Below are positions 617 to 7,587 of a stretch of DNA of 22,387 nt, piece after piece. This DNA is from a virus. Its lineage: Duplodnaviria > Heunggongvirae > Uroviricota > Caudoviricetes. The first letter of the stretch is position 1. Each line of letters starts with the position of its first letter. The stretch covers positions 1-22,387 of the IMG/VR virus record IMGVR_UViG_2698536657_000021; one strand, 5' to 3'. Below the pieces are notes generated by a model. That model saw only the letters and a program-made list of their open reading frames with translations, was not told where the DNA came from and did not search any database. The translations under genes and the position numbers were made by a program.

Positions 617-2599
617 TCATGCCGCGGCATCCGCGTTGTTCACTTCCACCTTCACACTGTCAATAAGCAGCGTATATGTCGCCGCCTTTGATATGCCTGT
701 CAGTTGCAGTTTGTCCGCCGACCCTGATGCCGGAGATTTCACCAGTGTGAACGGCGTACCCCGTTTCTCATCCAGTACCGGCGTCACCTGAATGCTGTTG
801 TTTCCGGCAAACTCAAAAGCCAGTGTGTGCCATCCGTTATCAAAGACCCCGAACGTATCCAGCTTCGCATTCTGCTTCTTGTGGTACATCGCGTTCAGGT
901 TCGTCGCATCCGTCTGCAGGAAGAAGGACATCAGCATGTCGTTGCCTTCCTCTGACAGCGTCACTCCCTCCGGCAGGGACGACAACTGCCAGTAAATACC
1001 CAGGGCAAACTGATTCGGCACCAGTGAGCCAGGCACCTTAAACCGCACGCTCACACGTCCGCCTTTCTTCAGCAACTCTGCTCCCTGCCCGGCTGCATCA
1101 TGCTCCAGAAACCAGATGTGGCTTTCCGGTTTGTTCAGTTGCAGGGCCTTACCACCGGTGGCACCCTCATCACTGACCACAGCCTCAGCGATGTTTTTAT
1201 TAACACTGTCTCCGCTCGCCGGTTTGTGATAATAGCGCCAGCCCTGTGATGCCAGGTCTTCACCGGACGCCAGCAGACTCATCAGGGTTCGGTTACTGAC
1301 CGGAGCTTCCGGCTCTCTCTCCGGGCCTTCACCGGAAGGTCCGGTGGGCTTCACCGTATCAGGCTGTTTTCCGGTAATGAATTCAGCGGTTCTCCCGGCG
1401 TGCAACAGAATCGCCGTTGCCAGACGGTCGGAAATAATCCCACGGCGAGCCCATGAACTGAAATGGCTTGCCCTGTCCACAGATGTCCAGGTCTTCTGGT
1501 CATTACGCCACTTTGAACCGTAATAACCGACGGTTTCCAGGTCCGGGTCTTCTGCCGGGTTATTGGTCTGCACATTCGCACCATTCTCATCCGTCATTAA
1601 CGGTACAAAGAAAATGTTCTGCGACTCCTTACCCTTATACCCTCCGTATACTGATGCATACCCTTCCGCATGACGCTGCTTCCAGAAATACGTTGTGTCC
1701 CCGCAAATCCACGGTACCGCTGATGCGCTGCCTCCTGTGCTCTGTGATGCCTGACCGGCAAGCTCCGTTCTGAACTGATTCACCATCGCACTAAACAGCC
1801 CCGGATGCTGCGCATGCGTCCCCACTGCCGCATCACCTTCTCCCTGCATCCACACCACCGCAAGCAGACGGTTTTTCGGGTTCTTCGCCAGTGCGGCTTT
1901 AGTCCGGCTCACCAAATCCTGATACAGCGGCTTACCCACACCCCAGCGCAGTGAATTTTCCGATGCACCGGCTGATTCGCTGTATGTGCCGTCTGCCCCC
2001 GTTGTGAATGCCGAAGCACCACGGCAGCACGGAACCAGCAGAATGCCCGCATTCGCCGGTATAAACGGCAGCAGTTTTTTGGCGATATGCAGCCCCTGCC
2101 CCACGGTTCCGTACTGCCCCTTTGACAGGTCCGCTTTCGGATGGTTAAGACGGCTCATGTCCTGCACATCATGCAGACAATGGTCCGCCGGAATAATGTC
2201 GTTATACTTACAGGCGGCACCGCCCGGTGTCACCGTACTGCGACGCGCCAGCTGCTTAATACGCGGGTCCGGACGGTCATATGTCTCCGGCAGCGGAAGG
2301 CCTTCACCATACGACATGCCGTTTGACTGCCCTGCCAGAACCACAACAAAGTAATACTCCGGGTCGCTGGTGGCGCTGATTACTGTGCCTTCTCCATCCG
2401 ACGGCTTCACCAACACAGGTGTGGTGACATCACCTTCCGCCGCAATGGCCTGCATCAGGGTATAAGGCGTGATGGCCACCGGGCTGCCAAATGGCTGCCA
2501 CCCCTCCTTCAGTTTTTGAGTCAGTCGCTCTGCAAGGTCTGACGGCGACGCCGCCCTGACCACATCGTAGTGTTTAAATGCCATGGTTCTTTCCACCAT
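617..2599 (-). CDS. nanS: prophage sialate O-acetylesterase NanS-p-like (DUF1737 N-terminal domain plus SGNH/SASA esterase domain)
   Basis: 660-aa track ORF. N-terminus MAFKHYDVVRAASPSDLAERL resembles DUF1737; VVVLAGQSNGMSYGEG is the SGNH-type esterase block I motif. Sits downstream of the phage tRNA cluster as in Stx-phage relatives. Alternative start ATG at 2584 (MAFKHYDV...) has a GGTGGAAAG context. Confidence 0.8.
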   Translation of the reverse strand: MVERTMAFKHYDVVRAASPSDLAERLTQKLKEGWQPFGSPVAITPYTLMQAIAAEGDVTTPVLVKPSDGEGTVISATSDPEYYFVVVLAGQSNGMSYGEGLPLPETYDRPDPRIKQLARRSTVTPGGAACKYNDIIPADHCLHDVQDMSRLNHPKADLSKGQYGTVGQGLHIAKKLLPFIPANAGILLVPCCRGASAFTTGADGTYSESAGASENSLRWGVGKPLYQDLVSRTKAALAKNPKNRLLAVVWMQGEGDAAVGTHAQHPGLFSAMVNQFRTELAGQASQSTGGSASAVPWICGDTTYFWKQRHAEGYASVYGGYKGKESQNIFFVPLMTDENGANVQTNNPAEDPDLETVGYYGSKWRNDQKTWTSVDRASHFSSWARRGIISDRLATAILLHAGRTAEFITGKQPDTVKPTGPSGEGPEREPEAPVSNRTLMSLLASGEDLASQGWRYYHKPASGDSVNKNIAEAVVSDEGATGGKALQLNKPESHIWFLEHDAAGQGAELLKKGGRVSVRFKVPGSLVPNQFALGIYWQLSSLPEGVTLSEEGNDMLMSFFLQTDATNLNAMYHKKQNAKLDTFGVFDNGWHTLAFEFAGNNSIQVTPVLDEKRGTPFTLVKSPASGSADKLQLTGISKAATYTLLIDSVKVEVNNADAAA

Positions 2600-3204: not shown

Positions 3205-3236
3205 ATTCATATAAAAGCCCCTCCGGAGAGGGGCTA
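3205..3236 (-). terminator. GC-rich hairpin terminator, possibly bidirectional
   Basis: 8-bp perfect stem AGCCCCTC (3216-3223) / GAGGGGCT (3228-3235), loop CGGA. The minus strand has TTTTAT after the stem; the plus strand has only AAAG, so termination of the 2846..3181 gene would lack a U-run. Confidence 0.45.
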
Positions 3237-3482: not shown

Positions 3483-3647
3483 CTAACTACCTGGCATGTC
3501 CTTTTTCACCAAAGGAAAAAGCACCACCACAATACCGACCACCAGCACTCCATCCGCCAGCACCGACATGATCCTGCTGGTGAAATCCACCATCACCACC
3601 AGAAACAGCAGGAGTGCCACAGCGGCCAGACGCAGTTTTACCGTCAC
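3483..3647 (-). CDS. small membrane peptide, 54 aa, two hydrophobic segments, translationally coupled to the upstream TerB-like gene
   Basis: Not in the ORF track (GTG start). GTG at 3647-3645 overlaps the TerB-like stop TGA (3646-3644) as GTGA; SD GGAGA 7 nt upstream; translation VTVKLRLAAVALLLFLVVMVDFTSRIMSVLADGVLVVGIVVVLFPLVKKDMPGS; stop TAG at 3485-3483. Confidence 0.4.
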   Translation of the reverse strand: MTVKLRLAAVALLLFLVVMVDFTSRIMSVLADGVLVVGIVVVLFPLVKKDMPGS

Positions 3648-4075
3648 AGGTGGTTCTCCAGTCGCAGGCCAAGAACACCAGCAATCTCTTCCAGAACCTT
3701 ACGCTCTTCCGGCTCAATTTCACCATCTGCTTCAGCAATAGCCACCGCCACATCCAGCACATCTTCCGCTTCACGCGTATCGTGTTTCACATCTTCAATT
3801 TCACGCAACGCCGCTCGACGACCAATTTTAAAGTTGGTGTCAAGCTGACCTGTGATCGTGGCACTGATGGCATTAATTTCTGACGTAAACGCGGACAACG
3901 CAGGCTGGTTACGTAATACCTGTTCGATCTTCGCTTTCTCTGAAGCCTCACATTCACCATCTGCATAGGCTACCAGGTAGGCAGCATTAATAACCGCCTG
4001 TGCCAGATCGCGTTTCTCAAACTTTTTAATTTCCGTTGCTGCTCTGCGGGTTTTCTTTTTGAAAATACCAAACAT
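3644..4075 (-). CDS. TerB-like (tellurite-resistance TerB domain) protein, 143 aa
   Basis: ATG at 4075-4073 with SD AAGGAA 8 nt upstream (the track's 4147 start is GTG with a poor N-terminal extension). Two-repeat architecture with YADGECEASEKAKIEQVL and AEADGEIEPEERKVLEEIAGVLGL, resembling the TerB ADG-x-E/D repeat fold. Confidence 0.65.
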   Translation of the reverse strand: MFGIFKKKTRRAATEIKKFEKRDLAQAVINAAYLVAYADGECEASEKAKIEQVLRNQPALSAFTSEINAISATITGQLDTNFKIGRRAALREIEDVKHDTREAEDVLDVAVAIAEADGEIEPEERKVLEEIAGVLGLRLENHL

Positions 4076-4204
4076 CGTGACGTTCCTTTGGGTGGGTGAG
4101 CCAACGCCCGGGAGCGATCTGCCCACAGAGAAAGTCACACTGACCACTCCGTAAGCTCACCCCCGAAAGGCTCTGTGGTTGATATGCGCCGGGCGTGGCG
4201 CGGA

Positions 4205-4230: not shown

Positions 4231-4264
4231 TCAGTTACGGGATTATTCTGGGGTTAAACGACTG

Positions 4265-4474
4265 TTACTCCCCCCAGACAAAATCATCACTTCCTGTTCG
4301 ATGCGAGCCATAGTGAACCTCGTACTTATCTCCCGTCTTTCTTGCTTCCGTTTCTGCGTCTTCCTCTGTCGCAAAAACCCCAACAAGATGCCAGGGCGAG
4401 CTTCTTACCACAGCCCAACCTTTAACCCATCCTTTGTTGTCCTTATCTTCCATTAACACTTCAGAAACAAACAT
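4265..4474 (-). CDS. hypothetical small protein, 69 aa
   Basis: ATG at 4474 with SD GGAGA and a 5-nt spacer; track ORF; Trp-rich (MFVSEVLMEDKDNKGWVKGWAVV...). No family recognised. Confidence 0.5.
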   Translation of the reverse strand: MFVSEVLMEDKDNKGWVKGWAVVRSSPWHLVGVFATEEDAETEARKTGDKYEVHYGSHRTGSDDFVWGE

Positions 4475-4526: not shown

Positions 4527-4751
4527 TCAATAAAGTGGCTTCAATTTTGCCTTAATGATCAAATCAGGGTGATTGACGGAATCGTACACCACCTCAATAT
4601 TTTCATCCGTGGCGTCGATAAGATATTCTTTTACATAAGGACCTGTTGATTTTCCATGAAATACATCTTCAACAAGTACACTCTCCCCCTGAACAACACG
4701 AAAACTAACTTCTGTTTCGAACGGACCAATCGTCACCATCAGTTTTTTCAC
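4527..4751 (-). CDS. hypothetical small protein, 74 aa
   Basis: GTG at 4751-4749 preceded by AGGAGG with a 4-nt spacer; track ORF (VKKLMVTIGPFETEVSF...). No family recognised. Confidence 0.5.
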   Translation of the reverse strand: MKKLMVTIGPFETEVSFRVVQGESVLVEDVFHGKSTGPYVKEYLIDATDENIEVVYDSVNHPDLIIKAKLKPLY

Positions 4752-4840: not shown

Positions 4841-4917
4841 TGGCGCGTTGTACTGGATTCGAACCAGTGACCGATTGCTTAGAAGGCAATTGCTCTGTCC
4901 GGCTGAGCTAACAACGC
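4841..4917 (-). tRNA. argO: tRNA-Arg (anticodon UCU)
   Basis: Manual cloverleaf fold of the reverse complement: perfect 7-bp acceptor stem GCGTTGT/ACAACGC, D-stem GCTC/GAGC, anticodon loop CTTCTAA, T-arm ACTGG-TTCGAAT-CCAGT, discriminator G, 3' CCA. Confidence 0.85.
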
Positions 4918-4930
4918 TGAATACCGATAA

Positions 4931-5007
4931 TGGACCGCCATCGAGGACTCGAACCCCGCGCAGCCAGCTTCGAAGGCTGACGCTCTGTCCCGATGAGCTA
5001 ATGGCGG
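4931..5007 (-). tRNA. argN: tRNA-Arg (anticodon UCG)
   Basis: Manual fold: acceptor CCGCCAT/ATGGCGG, D-stem GCTC/GAGC, anticodon loop CTTCGAA, T-loop TTCGAGT, 3' CCA. Confidence 0.8.
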
Positions 5008-5016
5008 TATGTGATA

Positions 5017-5092
5017 TGGTGGCCCTTGCTGGATTTGAACCAGCGACCTGGCGATTATGAGTCGCTCGCTCTCACCACTGAGCTAAAGGGCC
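5017..5092 (-). tRNA. ileZ: tRNA with CAU anticodon, ileX/ileZ-like (lysidine tRNA-Ile2 type), 76 nt
   Basis: Reverse complement GGCCCTTTAGCTCAGTGGTGAGAGCGAGCGACTCATAATCGCCAGGTCGCTGGTTCAAATCCAGCAAGGGCCACCA closely resembles E. coli ileX; anticodon loop CTCATAA. The Ile versus Met call is by that similarity only. Confidence 0.8.
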
Positions 5093-6765: not shown

Positions 6766-7587
6766 TTACCTGGTTACCTTTTTTAACTGCCTCTCAGCCC
6801 ATGCTTCCTCAATATCAAACTTGCTCACCAGCGCATCATAGAATTTCTTAACTGTTTTTTCCCATGACGCGCGTGTTATCTGGTTTGTCACCTCGCATAT
6901 AGCATTAAATGCCTCTGTTGACGGCAATCTTTCATAGCCACGACCACCACAACGCTGGCAGTCCCTGATAACAGGCATACCCCGTTTTTCAGACTCTTCA
7001 CGATGAATGGCAACACCGCGCCCACGACAATCTTTACAGGCGGTGGAAACCTCCCCCTTTCCGCCACACTCCGGACAGGCAACTTTTACCACCTCCCTGA
7101 CTTTTTTCCATTCCTCCCAGTAAGACGGATACACGCCTTTTGTGCACTTTGCCCACACTGGCGGCTTACCATCCGGATACTGGATCTTGTTTGTAAAAAC
7201 CTCGCTTTCAATAAATTTTTTTCCATGACAACAGGAGCACTGTTTTTTGCTCGCCGCGCTACGGGCATAATCTTCAAACGCATACGAAGCCATAATACGC
7301 ATCACTGCCGGTTTTATTTCTGCCGGGAGTTTTCTTAACGCCGCCACGCAATCACACCGACTGAGTGCATATTCTGTCAGCAATTCTGTTGCCCGTTCTC
7401 TGTCATTCATACTAATGCCCATTTTCCCAAGGAACGCAGAAAACCCCATCTCAGCCCGATTCTGTGTCATGCCCTGCGCGGCCATCACATCAGTGATACT
7501 CAGCGCATCTTTCGACGTTGAGGCCGATGCATCAGTCAGGCCGGGGGATTTTGGGGAGTAGTATTTCGGTAAATCTTCCAGTTTCAT
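6766..7587 (-). CDS. Q: late-gene antiterminator Q (QuuQ/YdfT-like, 273 aa, with CxxCxGxG zinc-finger repeats)
   Basis: Track ORF; ATG at 7587 overlaps the rusA stop as ATGA. Cys motifs CPECGGKG, CKDCRGRG, CQRCGGRG. Synteny DUF968 - rusA - Q - pR'/tR' is typical of lambdoid phages. Confidence 0.8.
   Translation of the reverse strand: MKLEDLPKYYSPKSPGLTDASASTSKDALSITDVMAAQGMTQNRAEMGFSAFLGKMGISMNDRERATELLTEYALSRCDCVAALRKLPAEIKPAVMRIMASYAFEDYARSAASKKQCSCCHGKKFIESEVFTNKIQYPDGKPPVWAKCTKGVYPSYWEEWKKVREVVKVACPECGGKGEVSTACKDCRGRGVAIHREESEKRGMPVIRDCQRCGGRGYERLPSTEAFNAICEVTNQITRASWEKTVKKFYDALVSKFDIEEAWAERQLKKVTR

Follow-up and report, generated by a model that had tools for sequence, protein, structure and literature searches.

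In phage P1, the ban operon contains three genes annotated tciA, tciB and tciC, with tRNA genes on either side (NC_005856), and this operon is a variable region of P1-like phage-plasmids, where its role has been called unclear (PMC9603915). TerB domains are also found in three phage-defence systems, Bunzi, Shango and Dionysus, whose proposed task is membrane surveillance (Millman 2022 preprint; Dionysus preprint), and the TerB of jumbo phages has been proposed to serve in competition with superinfecting phages (Iyer et al. 2021, PMC7824862). Here, we analyzed a two-gene locus at positions 3483–4075 of a 22,387-nucleotide stretch of Caudoviricetes DNA (IMG/VR record IMGVR_UViG_2698536657_000021, positions 1–22,387; hereafter the window), where a TerB-like protein coupled to a small membrane peptide had been predicted from the letters of the DNA. 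Sequence comparison identifies the pair as the tciA–tciB cassette, which is already known and annotated. What is apparently undescribed is a structured RNA leader directly upstream of it, just outside the interval to which the original prediction referred. The analysis shows an architecture of leader, tciA and coupled tciB within the Q-dependent late operon of a lambdoid prophage. The explanation of the whole that we favor, at a probability of about 0.5, is that TciA and TciB form a membrane-tethered unit whose translation is blocked by the leader and which would act at the inner membrane to protect the infected cell during the lytic phase.

Both genes are on the minus strand. The first, tciA (3644–4075), is an open reading frame (ORF) of 143 amino acids that starts with ATG and has the Shine–Dalgarno (SD) sequence AAAGGAA 7 nt 5′ of the start codon. 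The second, tciB (3483–3647), encodes 54 amino acids and starts with GTG, with GGAGA 6 nt 5′ of it; the TGA stop of tciA overlaps this GTG start (GTGA). All of these elements had been described correctly in the original prediction, and the proposed translational coupling is supported by the overlap, which is kept across close loci. Its statement that such a compact pair was undescribed proved wrong. The pair is named tciA–tciB in P1, is represented by PHROG 632 and PHROG 1470, and is annotated as tciA/tciB in the lambdoid phage JLK-2012, where the order is Q, tRNAs, tciA, tciB, yjhS, S, R and Rz. In the PGAP/RefSeq annotation, a TerB family protein and a DUF3927 family protein occur together in 1110 of 5426 complete Escherichia coli genomes, at up to eight places per genome in Shiga toxin-producing E. 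coli (STEC). The peptide, which an ATG-only ORF scan had been said to miss, is included in current annotation. The proteins of the window are 42% (TciA) and 48% (TciB) identical to those of P1.

The TerB-type fold proposed for the 143-residue protein was borne out by profile hidden Markov model (HMM) searches. TciA matches the Pfam family TerB (PF05099) with 61.3 bits against a cut-off of 24.4 (E = 1.3e-16, residues 26–138) and belongs to PHROG 632 (‘tellurite resistance’, E = 1e-69), while a profile of nine phage TciA sequences matches Klebsiella TerB (PDB 2JXU) over residues 15–137 (E = 3.5e-14). An AlphaFold2 model is all-helical, with eight helices and a pLDDT (predicted local distance difference test) score of 89.4. 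Its best Foldseek neighbors are the TerB-like structures 2H5N (probability 1.0, TM-score 0.55–0.62) and 2OU3, with E-values against PDB that are weak (0.01–1.5), so that membership in the TerB fold rests mainly on the sequence profiles. By these matches we regard TciA as a genuine homologue of TerB. It has two acidic ADGE motifs, in which D39, G40, E46, D117, G118 and E124 are conserved, and a strongly uneven charge: the first 23 residues (MFGIFKKK...) carry a net charge of +6 and the remainder one of −12. The ratio of non-synonymous to synonymous substitution rates (dN/dS) is 0.04–0.075. NCBIfam gave a weak partial match to DjlA, and PADLOC-DB 2.0, which includes Bunzi and Shango, gave only a sub-threshold partial match to the candidate PDC-S48 (E = 0.002, 35 residues). 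An in-frame extension of tciA to an upstream GTG (167 amino acids, 3644–4147) was considered and rejected, as leader variants carry 1-nt insertions or deletions there and the MFGIF start and its SD are conserved.

The 54-residue peptide is likewise a member of a known family. It matches Pfam DUF3927 (PF13064) with 59.5 bits against a cut-off of 25 (E = 3.2e-16) and belongs to PHROG 1470 (‘TciB-like inhibition of cell division or resistance to colicin’, E = 1.4e-24). Hydropathy analysis places two hydrophobic segments at residues ~7–20 and ~27–46, and basic residues stand at both ends (K4 and R6; K48 and K49), which together with the DUF3927 match upholds the prediction of a two-helix membrane peptide and, by the positive-inside rule, fits an inner-membrane hairpin with both termini in the cytoplasm. 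We found no TciB match in PADLOC-DB 2.0, no holin family among the Pfam and PHROG matches, and no Pfam signal besides DUF3927 that would relate TciB to TerC. One could argue that so short a frame is no gene at all and only a chance opening in the 3′ untranslated region of tciA, as it is hydrophobic, of low complexity and GTG-initiated, and a tblastn search of phage genomes with the peptide returned nothing. That empty result is an artefact of the low-complexity filter; annotation and HMM searches did detect TciB. A DUF3927 profile search yielded 788 clusters; all of the 120 listed are 50–84 amino acids long, and the organism-named ones among those listed are from Enterobacterales. The exact 54-residue protein is on record from ~1000 contigs. 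The full-length frame, the GTG start and the GTGA junction are kept in ~71 of the 76 close loci that extend far enough to judge, the others having frameshifts or stop changes; frame and start are preserved over 26–100% identity, and dN/dS is 0.13–0.43, below 0.45 throughout. The frame conservation foreseen for homologous loci is thus observed, and the non-gene reading is already effectively refuted.

TciB is a near-obligate neighbor of TciA. In the co-occurrence survey that had been suggested for the pair, made over three viral-contig scans and phage records, tciB lies directly 3′ of tciA in 235 of 249 loci, and when TciA is clustered at 80% identity, 9 of the 13 clusters have the two genes spaced by −17 to +3 nt. 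The 14 tciA loci without an adjacent DUF3927 gene include three contig ends, one frameshift fusion, one rearrangement and eight loci of a Pseudomonas type. In these eight, an unrelated protein of 67–73 amino acids with one N-terminal transmembrane helix and a conserved C-terminal motif, CxWYGYQTERxTK...GWVPR, is encoded at the same position with a 4-nt overlap, directly 3′ of tciA (L007 1932–2153; also L094, L096, L107, L138, L142 and L147). This partner looks like a non-homologous replacement of TciB. No true TerB–DUF3927 fusion was present among the matches listed in the DUF3927 profile search. Two apparent fusions (P0125 and P0186) that might have served as Rosetta-stone evidence have out-of-frame junctions and were set aside as frameshift or sequencing artefacts, and some E. 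coli genomes have a ‘DUF3927 domain-containing’ match to the 5′ end of tciA that is what remains of a pseudogene, amid insertion sequence (IS) elements.

The 5′ leader of tciA comprises 129 nt (4073–4201, minus strand; 156.4 bits with a covariance model) and folds into six helices, two of which are pseudoknots. It opens with the P0 hairpin (4197–4201 with 4186–4190), whose loop, CGCCC (4191–4195), pairs with GGGCG (4105–4109) to form pseudoknot PK1. Helix P1 is formed by CCACAGAG (4171–4178) and CUCUGUGG (4123–4130), P2 is a hairpin at 4133–4145, and P3 joins GGAGU (4146–4150) to GCUCC (4111–4115). The remaining long helix consists of the second pseudoknot, PK2, formed by GGGUGAGC (4155–4162) and GCUCACCC (4094–4101), and of an extension past a bulge, with a GG:CC step followed by an anti-SD strand, CCUUU (4166–4170), that pairs with the SD of tciA, AAAGG (4085–4089). 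In unconstrained minimum free energy (MFE) predictions by RNAfold, the SD-sequestering helix is present in the Klebsiella-type and jumbo-phage leaders, and in the window it lies 1.6 kcal/mol above the MFE; the energy of the duplex is −20 to −25 kcal/mol. An alternative helix between UUACGGAG and CUCUGUGG in the MFE structure of the window leader was rejected, as a check by eye did not find it conserved in other leader types.

This leader corresponds to a conserved block of ~130 nt upstream of tciA that is common to the window, to E. coli and Klebsiella prophages whose TciA is only 42–46% identical, and to jumbo phages. It begins directly past the upstream terminator, or past a tRNA gene in the jumbo phages, and ends at the start codon of tciA. 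A strict motif locates it in 152 of 250 loci, and variant copies raise this count; blastn against phage genomes gave 41 records of the leader upstream of tciA. When each GTDB species, represented by a single genome, was scanned with an unbiased pattern, six real matches were returned, all directly upstream of tciA of either clade; five bear the names of Enterobacterales genera and one is from a Proteobacteria metagenome-assembled genome. The leader is absent upstream of tciA in P1 and P7. Rfam 15 gave no match over 4073–4201, either at the gathering score or at E ≤ 10, and full-text literature searches returned nothing relevant on tciA or a TerB-linked riboswitch. The leader is not PasA or PasC: the Pas preprint puts PasA between the esterase and holin genes and lists TerB merely as a neighboring gene. 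Two sets of insertions touch this region. In PPompW prophages, the IS110-family element ISEc20 sits after nucleotide 45 of the leader (L267 3501–5000, LC567822.1), and tciAB and the lysis genes are deleted; in L047 (464–3000), L053 and L038, an IS66-family element parts an intact leader from tciA.

Support for the structure comes from sequence variation. In a hand-registered alignment of 23 distinct leaders, 11 pairs change on both sides, and the covariation score is 0.204 compared with at most 0.070 in controls; none of 500 shuffles reached the observed score. Standard pairs occupy 95.8–96.9% of cells (96.9% in the hand-registered alignment), compared with 34–52% when the partners are slid. 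Compensated variants were found for P0 (GCGCC/GGCGC, CUGUC/GACAG, ACAUC/GAUGU and CACAC/GUGUG), for PK1 (CGCCC/GGGCG, CGCUC/GAGCG and GGCUC/GAGCC) and for helix P1, where CCACAGAG, CCGUAGAG or CCGCAGAG each occurs with a matching 3′ strand. The pair adjoining the anti-SD is G–C in 8 sequences and A–U in 11. RNAalifold recovers P0, P1 and P2 independently. These alignments show that the anti-SD:SD helix is conserved in the tciA leader at the level of predicted pairing.

A covariance model, R1, was built from 11 enterobacterial leaders with the nested helices only. It finds six jumbo-phage leaders, which were outside the training set, at 53–60 bits, and it also detects diverged copies in front of other genes. 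At ~50 bits, R1 finds such copies in E. coli prophages (L003 8296–8429, equivalent to LC567835.1 ~22446–22579, and L013 6142–6275), directly upstream of the anti-repressor gene ant (P22_AR_N, PHROG 524), in the interval from the endolysin gene to Rz. Further copies at 29–32 bits (L261 1255–1367 and L262 1001–1111, both on the minus strand) precede function-unassigned ORFs (PHROG 13555/29765) in Buttiauxella and Leclercia prophages. Inspection of the model alignments indicates that the diverged copies keep the helices with other sequences, e.g. UCUCAC/GUGAGA and UCGCAC/GUGCGA at the P0 loop. With these copies included, the model-derived alignment has 26 of 43 pairs with changes in both partners, compared with 3–8 in slid controls, and the covariation score is 0.315 compared with at most 0.084, again unmatched by any of 500 shuffles. 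The pseudoknot pairings that lie outside the model are nevertheless paired in this alignment (P1 in 97.6% and PK1 in 90.4%). The weakest helix of the leader is P3, at 87% paired. An ant gene with a diverged leader is followed by a coupled 48-amino-acid ORF.

The surroundings define a cargo slot in the late operon. On the minus strand, the order is DUF968, RusA, Q, an N6/N4 DNA methylase, tRNAs, two small ORFs, a terminator, tciAB, STnc100, the nanS-p-type esterase and DUF826. The operon is that of the Q antiterminator (6766–7587, Pfam Antiterm PF03589, E = 4e-53). Upstream of the pair and transcribed in the same direction are genes for tRNA-Met(cat), tRNA-Arg(tcg) and tRNA-Arg(tct) (4841–5092, ARAGORN and Rfam tRNA), followed by small ORFs of 74 (4527–4751) and 69 amino acids (4265–4474), also on the minus strand, between the tRNA cluster and the terminator. 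The 69-residue product matches PHROG 4280 (function unassigned) over its full length; the match of the 74-residue product is limited to positions 100–171 of PHROG 2571 (291 amino acids), so that this ORF may be a truncated remnant. Both flanking terminators of the original prediction were recovered by the terminator scan on the minus strand. The upstream one, at 4232–4212, is an intrinsic-terminator-like hairpin with a U-tract directly 5′ of the tciA leader, and a terminator or U-tract stands in this position in most homologous loci. No consensus promoter was found between it and tciA, where spacing and sequence are not conserved. This terminator may insulate the cassette against upstream read-through, with the exception of Q-modified polymerase. 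The downstream one, at 3235–3216, belongs to a small RNA (sRNA) of the STnc100 family (RF02076; 3205–3417, minus strand), which is full length (131.5 bits against an Rfam gathering score of 47), starts 65 nt past the stop codon of tciB and closes the slot on its 3′ side. Stx2 phages carry STnc100 immediately 3′ of the Shiga toxin gene stx2B (PMC12711010, PMC12370729). As the same sRNA directly follows stx2B there, tciAB occupies the slot held by stx in Stx phages, and STnc100 marks the 3′ edge of the slot and is not part of tciAB. The nanS-p-type sialate O-acetylesterase (617–2599, minus strand; Pfam SASA, DUF1737 and DUF6645) lies downstream, and given the stx-slot position and the gene order, a late-region cargo slot between the tRNA cluster and nanS-p was a fair description. 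No tciC-like ORF (a 35-amino-acid peptide with a single transmembrane segment) is present between tciB and STnc100, and no other ter gene was found in the window or in homologous loci, so TciA is a stand-alone paralogue. A hairpin resembling part of STnc100 (CACCGGGAGGCACYCGGCA) is also found upstream of tciA in P1 and P7. By the synteny of the Pas preprint (esterase–PasA/PasC–holin), an sRNA of the PasA/PasC type might sit at 420–617, downstream of the esterase gene.

Elsewhere, the pair occupies other contexts. Klebsiella prophages carry it between Q and the holin genes, a Serratia prophage has it in the early-left operon between cI and recT–xis–int, and in P1-like elements it stands, as tciAB(C), ahead of a dnaB homologue. 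Virulent jumbo phages of Erwinia and Salmonella encode it among tRNA genes near the genome start, with a TciA 66–76% identical to that of the window, and lytic phages of the N4-like, Vibrio and Pseudomonas kinds have TerB homologues as well. Judged by these sequence contexts, the two genes move as one unit and reside in operons that are turned on during lytic growth. Same-strand tRNA genes within 1.5 kb of tciA accompany 82 of 100, 56 of 82 and 30 of 47 loci in the three large clusters, and are found in the jumbo phages as well. Loci with tciAB in tRNA clusters comprise the window (4841–5092), L001, L002, L004, L005, L006 and L263–L266; all three tRNA genes of P1 flank tciABC, and in the jumbo phages the pair lies between tRNA-Trp/Cys and tRNA-Tyr/Gln/Ile/Met. 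We considered whether tRNA-Asn, tRNA-Thr and tciAB moved as one cassette between P1 and lambdoid phages, and rejected this because P1 and JLK-2012 have no DNA similarity in the tRNA region. Since the tRNA species also differ, the linkage may only reflect a shared cargo hot-spot.

In the mechanism that we favor, TciB would serve as a membrane anchor or effector for TciA, or would be under the control of TciA at the inner membrane, and the hydrophobic and polybasic N-terminus of TciA may add to the tethering. The folded leader would repress initiation at tciA, a block that extends to tciB because translation of tciB depends on coupling, and a conformational switch would relieve it. Helix P1 abuts the anti-SD without a linker, and its partner strand lies in the apical loop of the long helix, so that P1 and the full SD helix are probably mutually exclusive; the P1 fold and the SD-hiding helix would then be the two states of the switch. 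Candidate signals are a ligand, an ion, temperature or a phage protein. As the leader also stands before ant and other genes, it would be a general regulator of cargo genes and not a sensor specific to TerB. We therefore propose, tentatively and at slightly less than even odds, that it represents an undescribed family of phage cis-regulatory RNA, double-pseudoknotted and SD-sequestering, that travels with moron cassettes and gates their translation by the P1/SD-helix switch. The lytic-cycle operons and the presence in virulent phages argue for a role of tciAB for the phage during infection, and the proteins would be made in lytic development. There, they probably act at the inner membrane against superinfecting phages or against membrane-active toxins and other insults. 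Superinfection exclusion or protection against membrane-active insults is our best-motivated guess; it is the idea, drawn from homology, on which the name tci rests, as does the proposal that Iyer et al. 2021 made for jumbo-phage TerB.

Several points weigh against this explanation. Knock-down of P1 tciA, tciB and tciC by CRISPR interference (CRISPRi) left plaque formation unaffected (PMC10695390), and our literature search found no experiment that ties tciAB to a phenotype. The identities of the two proteins are uncoupled, with 71–76% for TciA and 26% for TciB in the jumbo phages compared with 42% and 48% in P1, and the contact between TciA and TciB is itself something that we infer. The PMBT3-type and Vibrio K481 loci are the only ones without an adjacent membrane partner. 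For the leader, structure and alignment drew in part on one and the same set of sequences, one alignment being registered by hand and the other fitted to the nested helices, and a few lineages account for much of the covariation. The steric argument for the switch is a reasoning from the layout with no computation behind it, and a leader that also precedes unrelated genes says nothing specific about the function of TerB.

A different explanation is lysogenic conversion, in which a moron expressed from the prophage gives the host resistance to tellurite, pore-forming colicins or phages. By profile, TciA is a true homologue of the TerB of the ter operon, the ter cluster of IncHI2 plasmids is established to confer all three resistances, terminators bracket the cassette as in a moron, and STEC genomes carry up to eight copies. 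Nevertheless, we consider this improbable: no further ter gene is present in the window, no promoter matches upstream of tciA, the leader in its predicted default state conceals the SD, and strictly virulent phages of the jumbo and N4-like types have the cassette as well. Authors who reported a lone terB in lytic phages likewise doubted it as a source of tellurite resistance (PMC8421299, PMC3728262). Together, its occurrence in virulent phages, the lack of further ter genes and the concealed SD are reasons to regard the database label ‘tellurite resistance’ as misleading.

Somewhat less improbable, and still unlikely, is that TciB damages membranes in the manner of a holin, a pinholin or Hok, with TciA as its regulator, in the timing of lysis or as an abortive or exclusion toxin. 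TciB has the size and the two transmembrane segments, N-in and C-in, of a class II holin, the pair lies directly between Q and the holin–endolysin genes in Klebsiella and some E. coli prophages, and tight translational control with coupling would suit a toxic product. Yet this adjacency to lysis genes holds only in some phages, the pair being far from them in P1, the Serratia prophage and the jumbo phages; TciB has no dual-start motif and no holin match in PHROG or Pfam; and the P1 knock-downs were without a plaque phenotype. Having the soluble gene first and the coupled peptide second would give a roughly fixed stoichiometry and not an excess of antitoxin. Counter-defence, with TciA mimicking or jamming Bunzi, Shango or Dionysus, or a tRNA-linked role, in which it aids phage tRNAs against colicins D and E5 or anticodon nucleases, is as doubtful as lysogenic conversion. 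The association of TerB with phage defence stressed in the original prediction is real in that TerB domains occur in those three validated systems; for this pair it is only a lead, as TciA matches no PADLOC model of them. The frequent tRNA genes near tciA, including those that flank tciABC in P1, speak for a tRNA-linked role, and against it stand the differing tRNA species, the dissimilar tRNA regions of P1 and JLK-2012 and the many loci without tRNAs.

If the proposed reading of the leader as a cis-regulatory RNA is true, translation of tciAB, and by extension of a set of late cargo genes in the prophages of pathogenic E. coli, would be conditionally controlled and would not simply follow Q-dependent transcription. 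The leader, once confirmed, would offer a new handle on how such cargo, an anti-repressor among it, is controlled after transcription. The cassette itself is among the most widespread function-unassigned cargo modules of enterobacterial phages, and it shares its late-operon slot with Shiga toxin.

Compared with known regulatory RNAs, the leader resembles the SAM-II and preQ1-II riboswitches and the fourU and ROSE thermometers in that a U-rich anti-SD strand pairs with the SD directly 5′ of the ORF, and it resembles pseudoknotted translational riboswitches in that pseudoknots stabilize the fold. With 129 nt and six helices, it is far more complex than the thermometers, and it differs from them in preceding unrelated genes (tciA, ant and other ORFs) and in having no Rfam match. 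The closest described system for the genes is P1 tciABC, which shares with the window a TerB-type protein of 141–143 amino acids, a 54-residue DUF3927 peptide with two transmembrane segments, a stop/start overlap, flanking tRNA genes and an accessory, variable and non-essential character. P1 differs in having tciC and in placing the genes in the C1-controlled ban operon, whereas those of the window are in a Q-dependent late operon; its tciB starts with ATG and overlaps by 1 nt, compared with GTG and 4 nt here; and the pseudoknotted leader of the window is lacking in P1 and P7. With the TerB of the ter cluster (Klebsiella, 2JXU), TciA shares near-full-length homology, an all-helical fold, paired acidic D-G-E motifs and a membrane protein encoded immediately downstream, TerC there and TciB here. 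In contrast to terZABCDE, the TerZ, A, C, D and E proteins are absent here, a 54-residue hairpin stands in place of the multi-pass TerC, and TciA is phage-borne and, from its operon contexts, probably expressed in the lytic cycle. In Bunzi (BnzA), Shango (SngA) and Dionysus (DinB), as in tciAB, a TerB domain works with or is fused to transmembrane components; tciAB differs in having no helicase, ATPase or pore-forming partner and in being carried by phages, virulent ones included, and not in host defence islands. Taken together with TerB–TerC, DjlA and the transmembrane-fused BnzA, TciA–TciB may represent a split version of the membrane-tethered TerB module.

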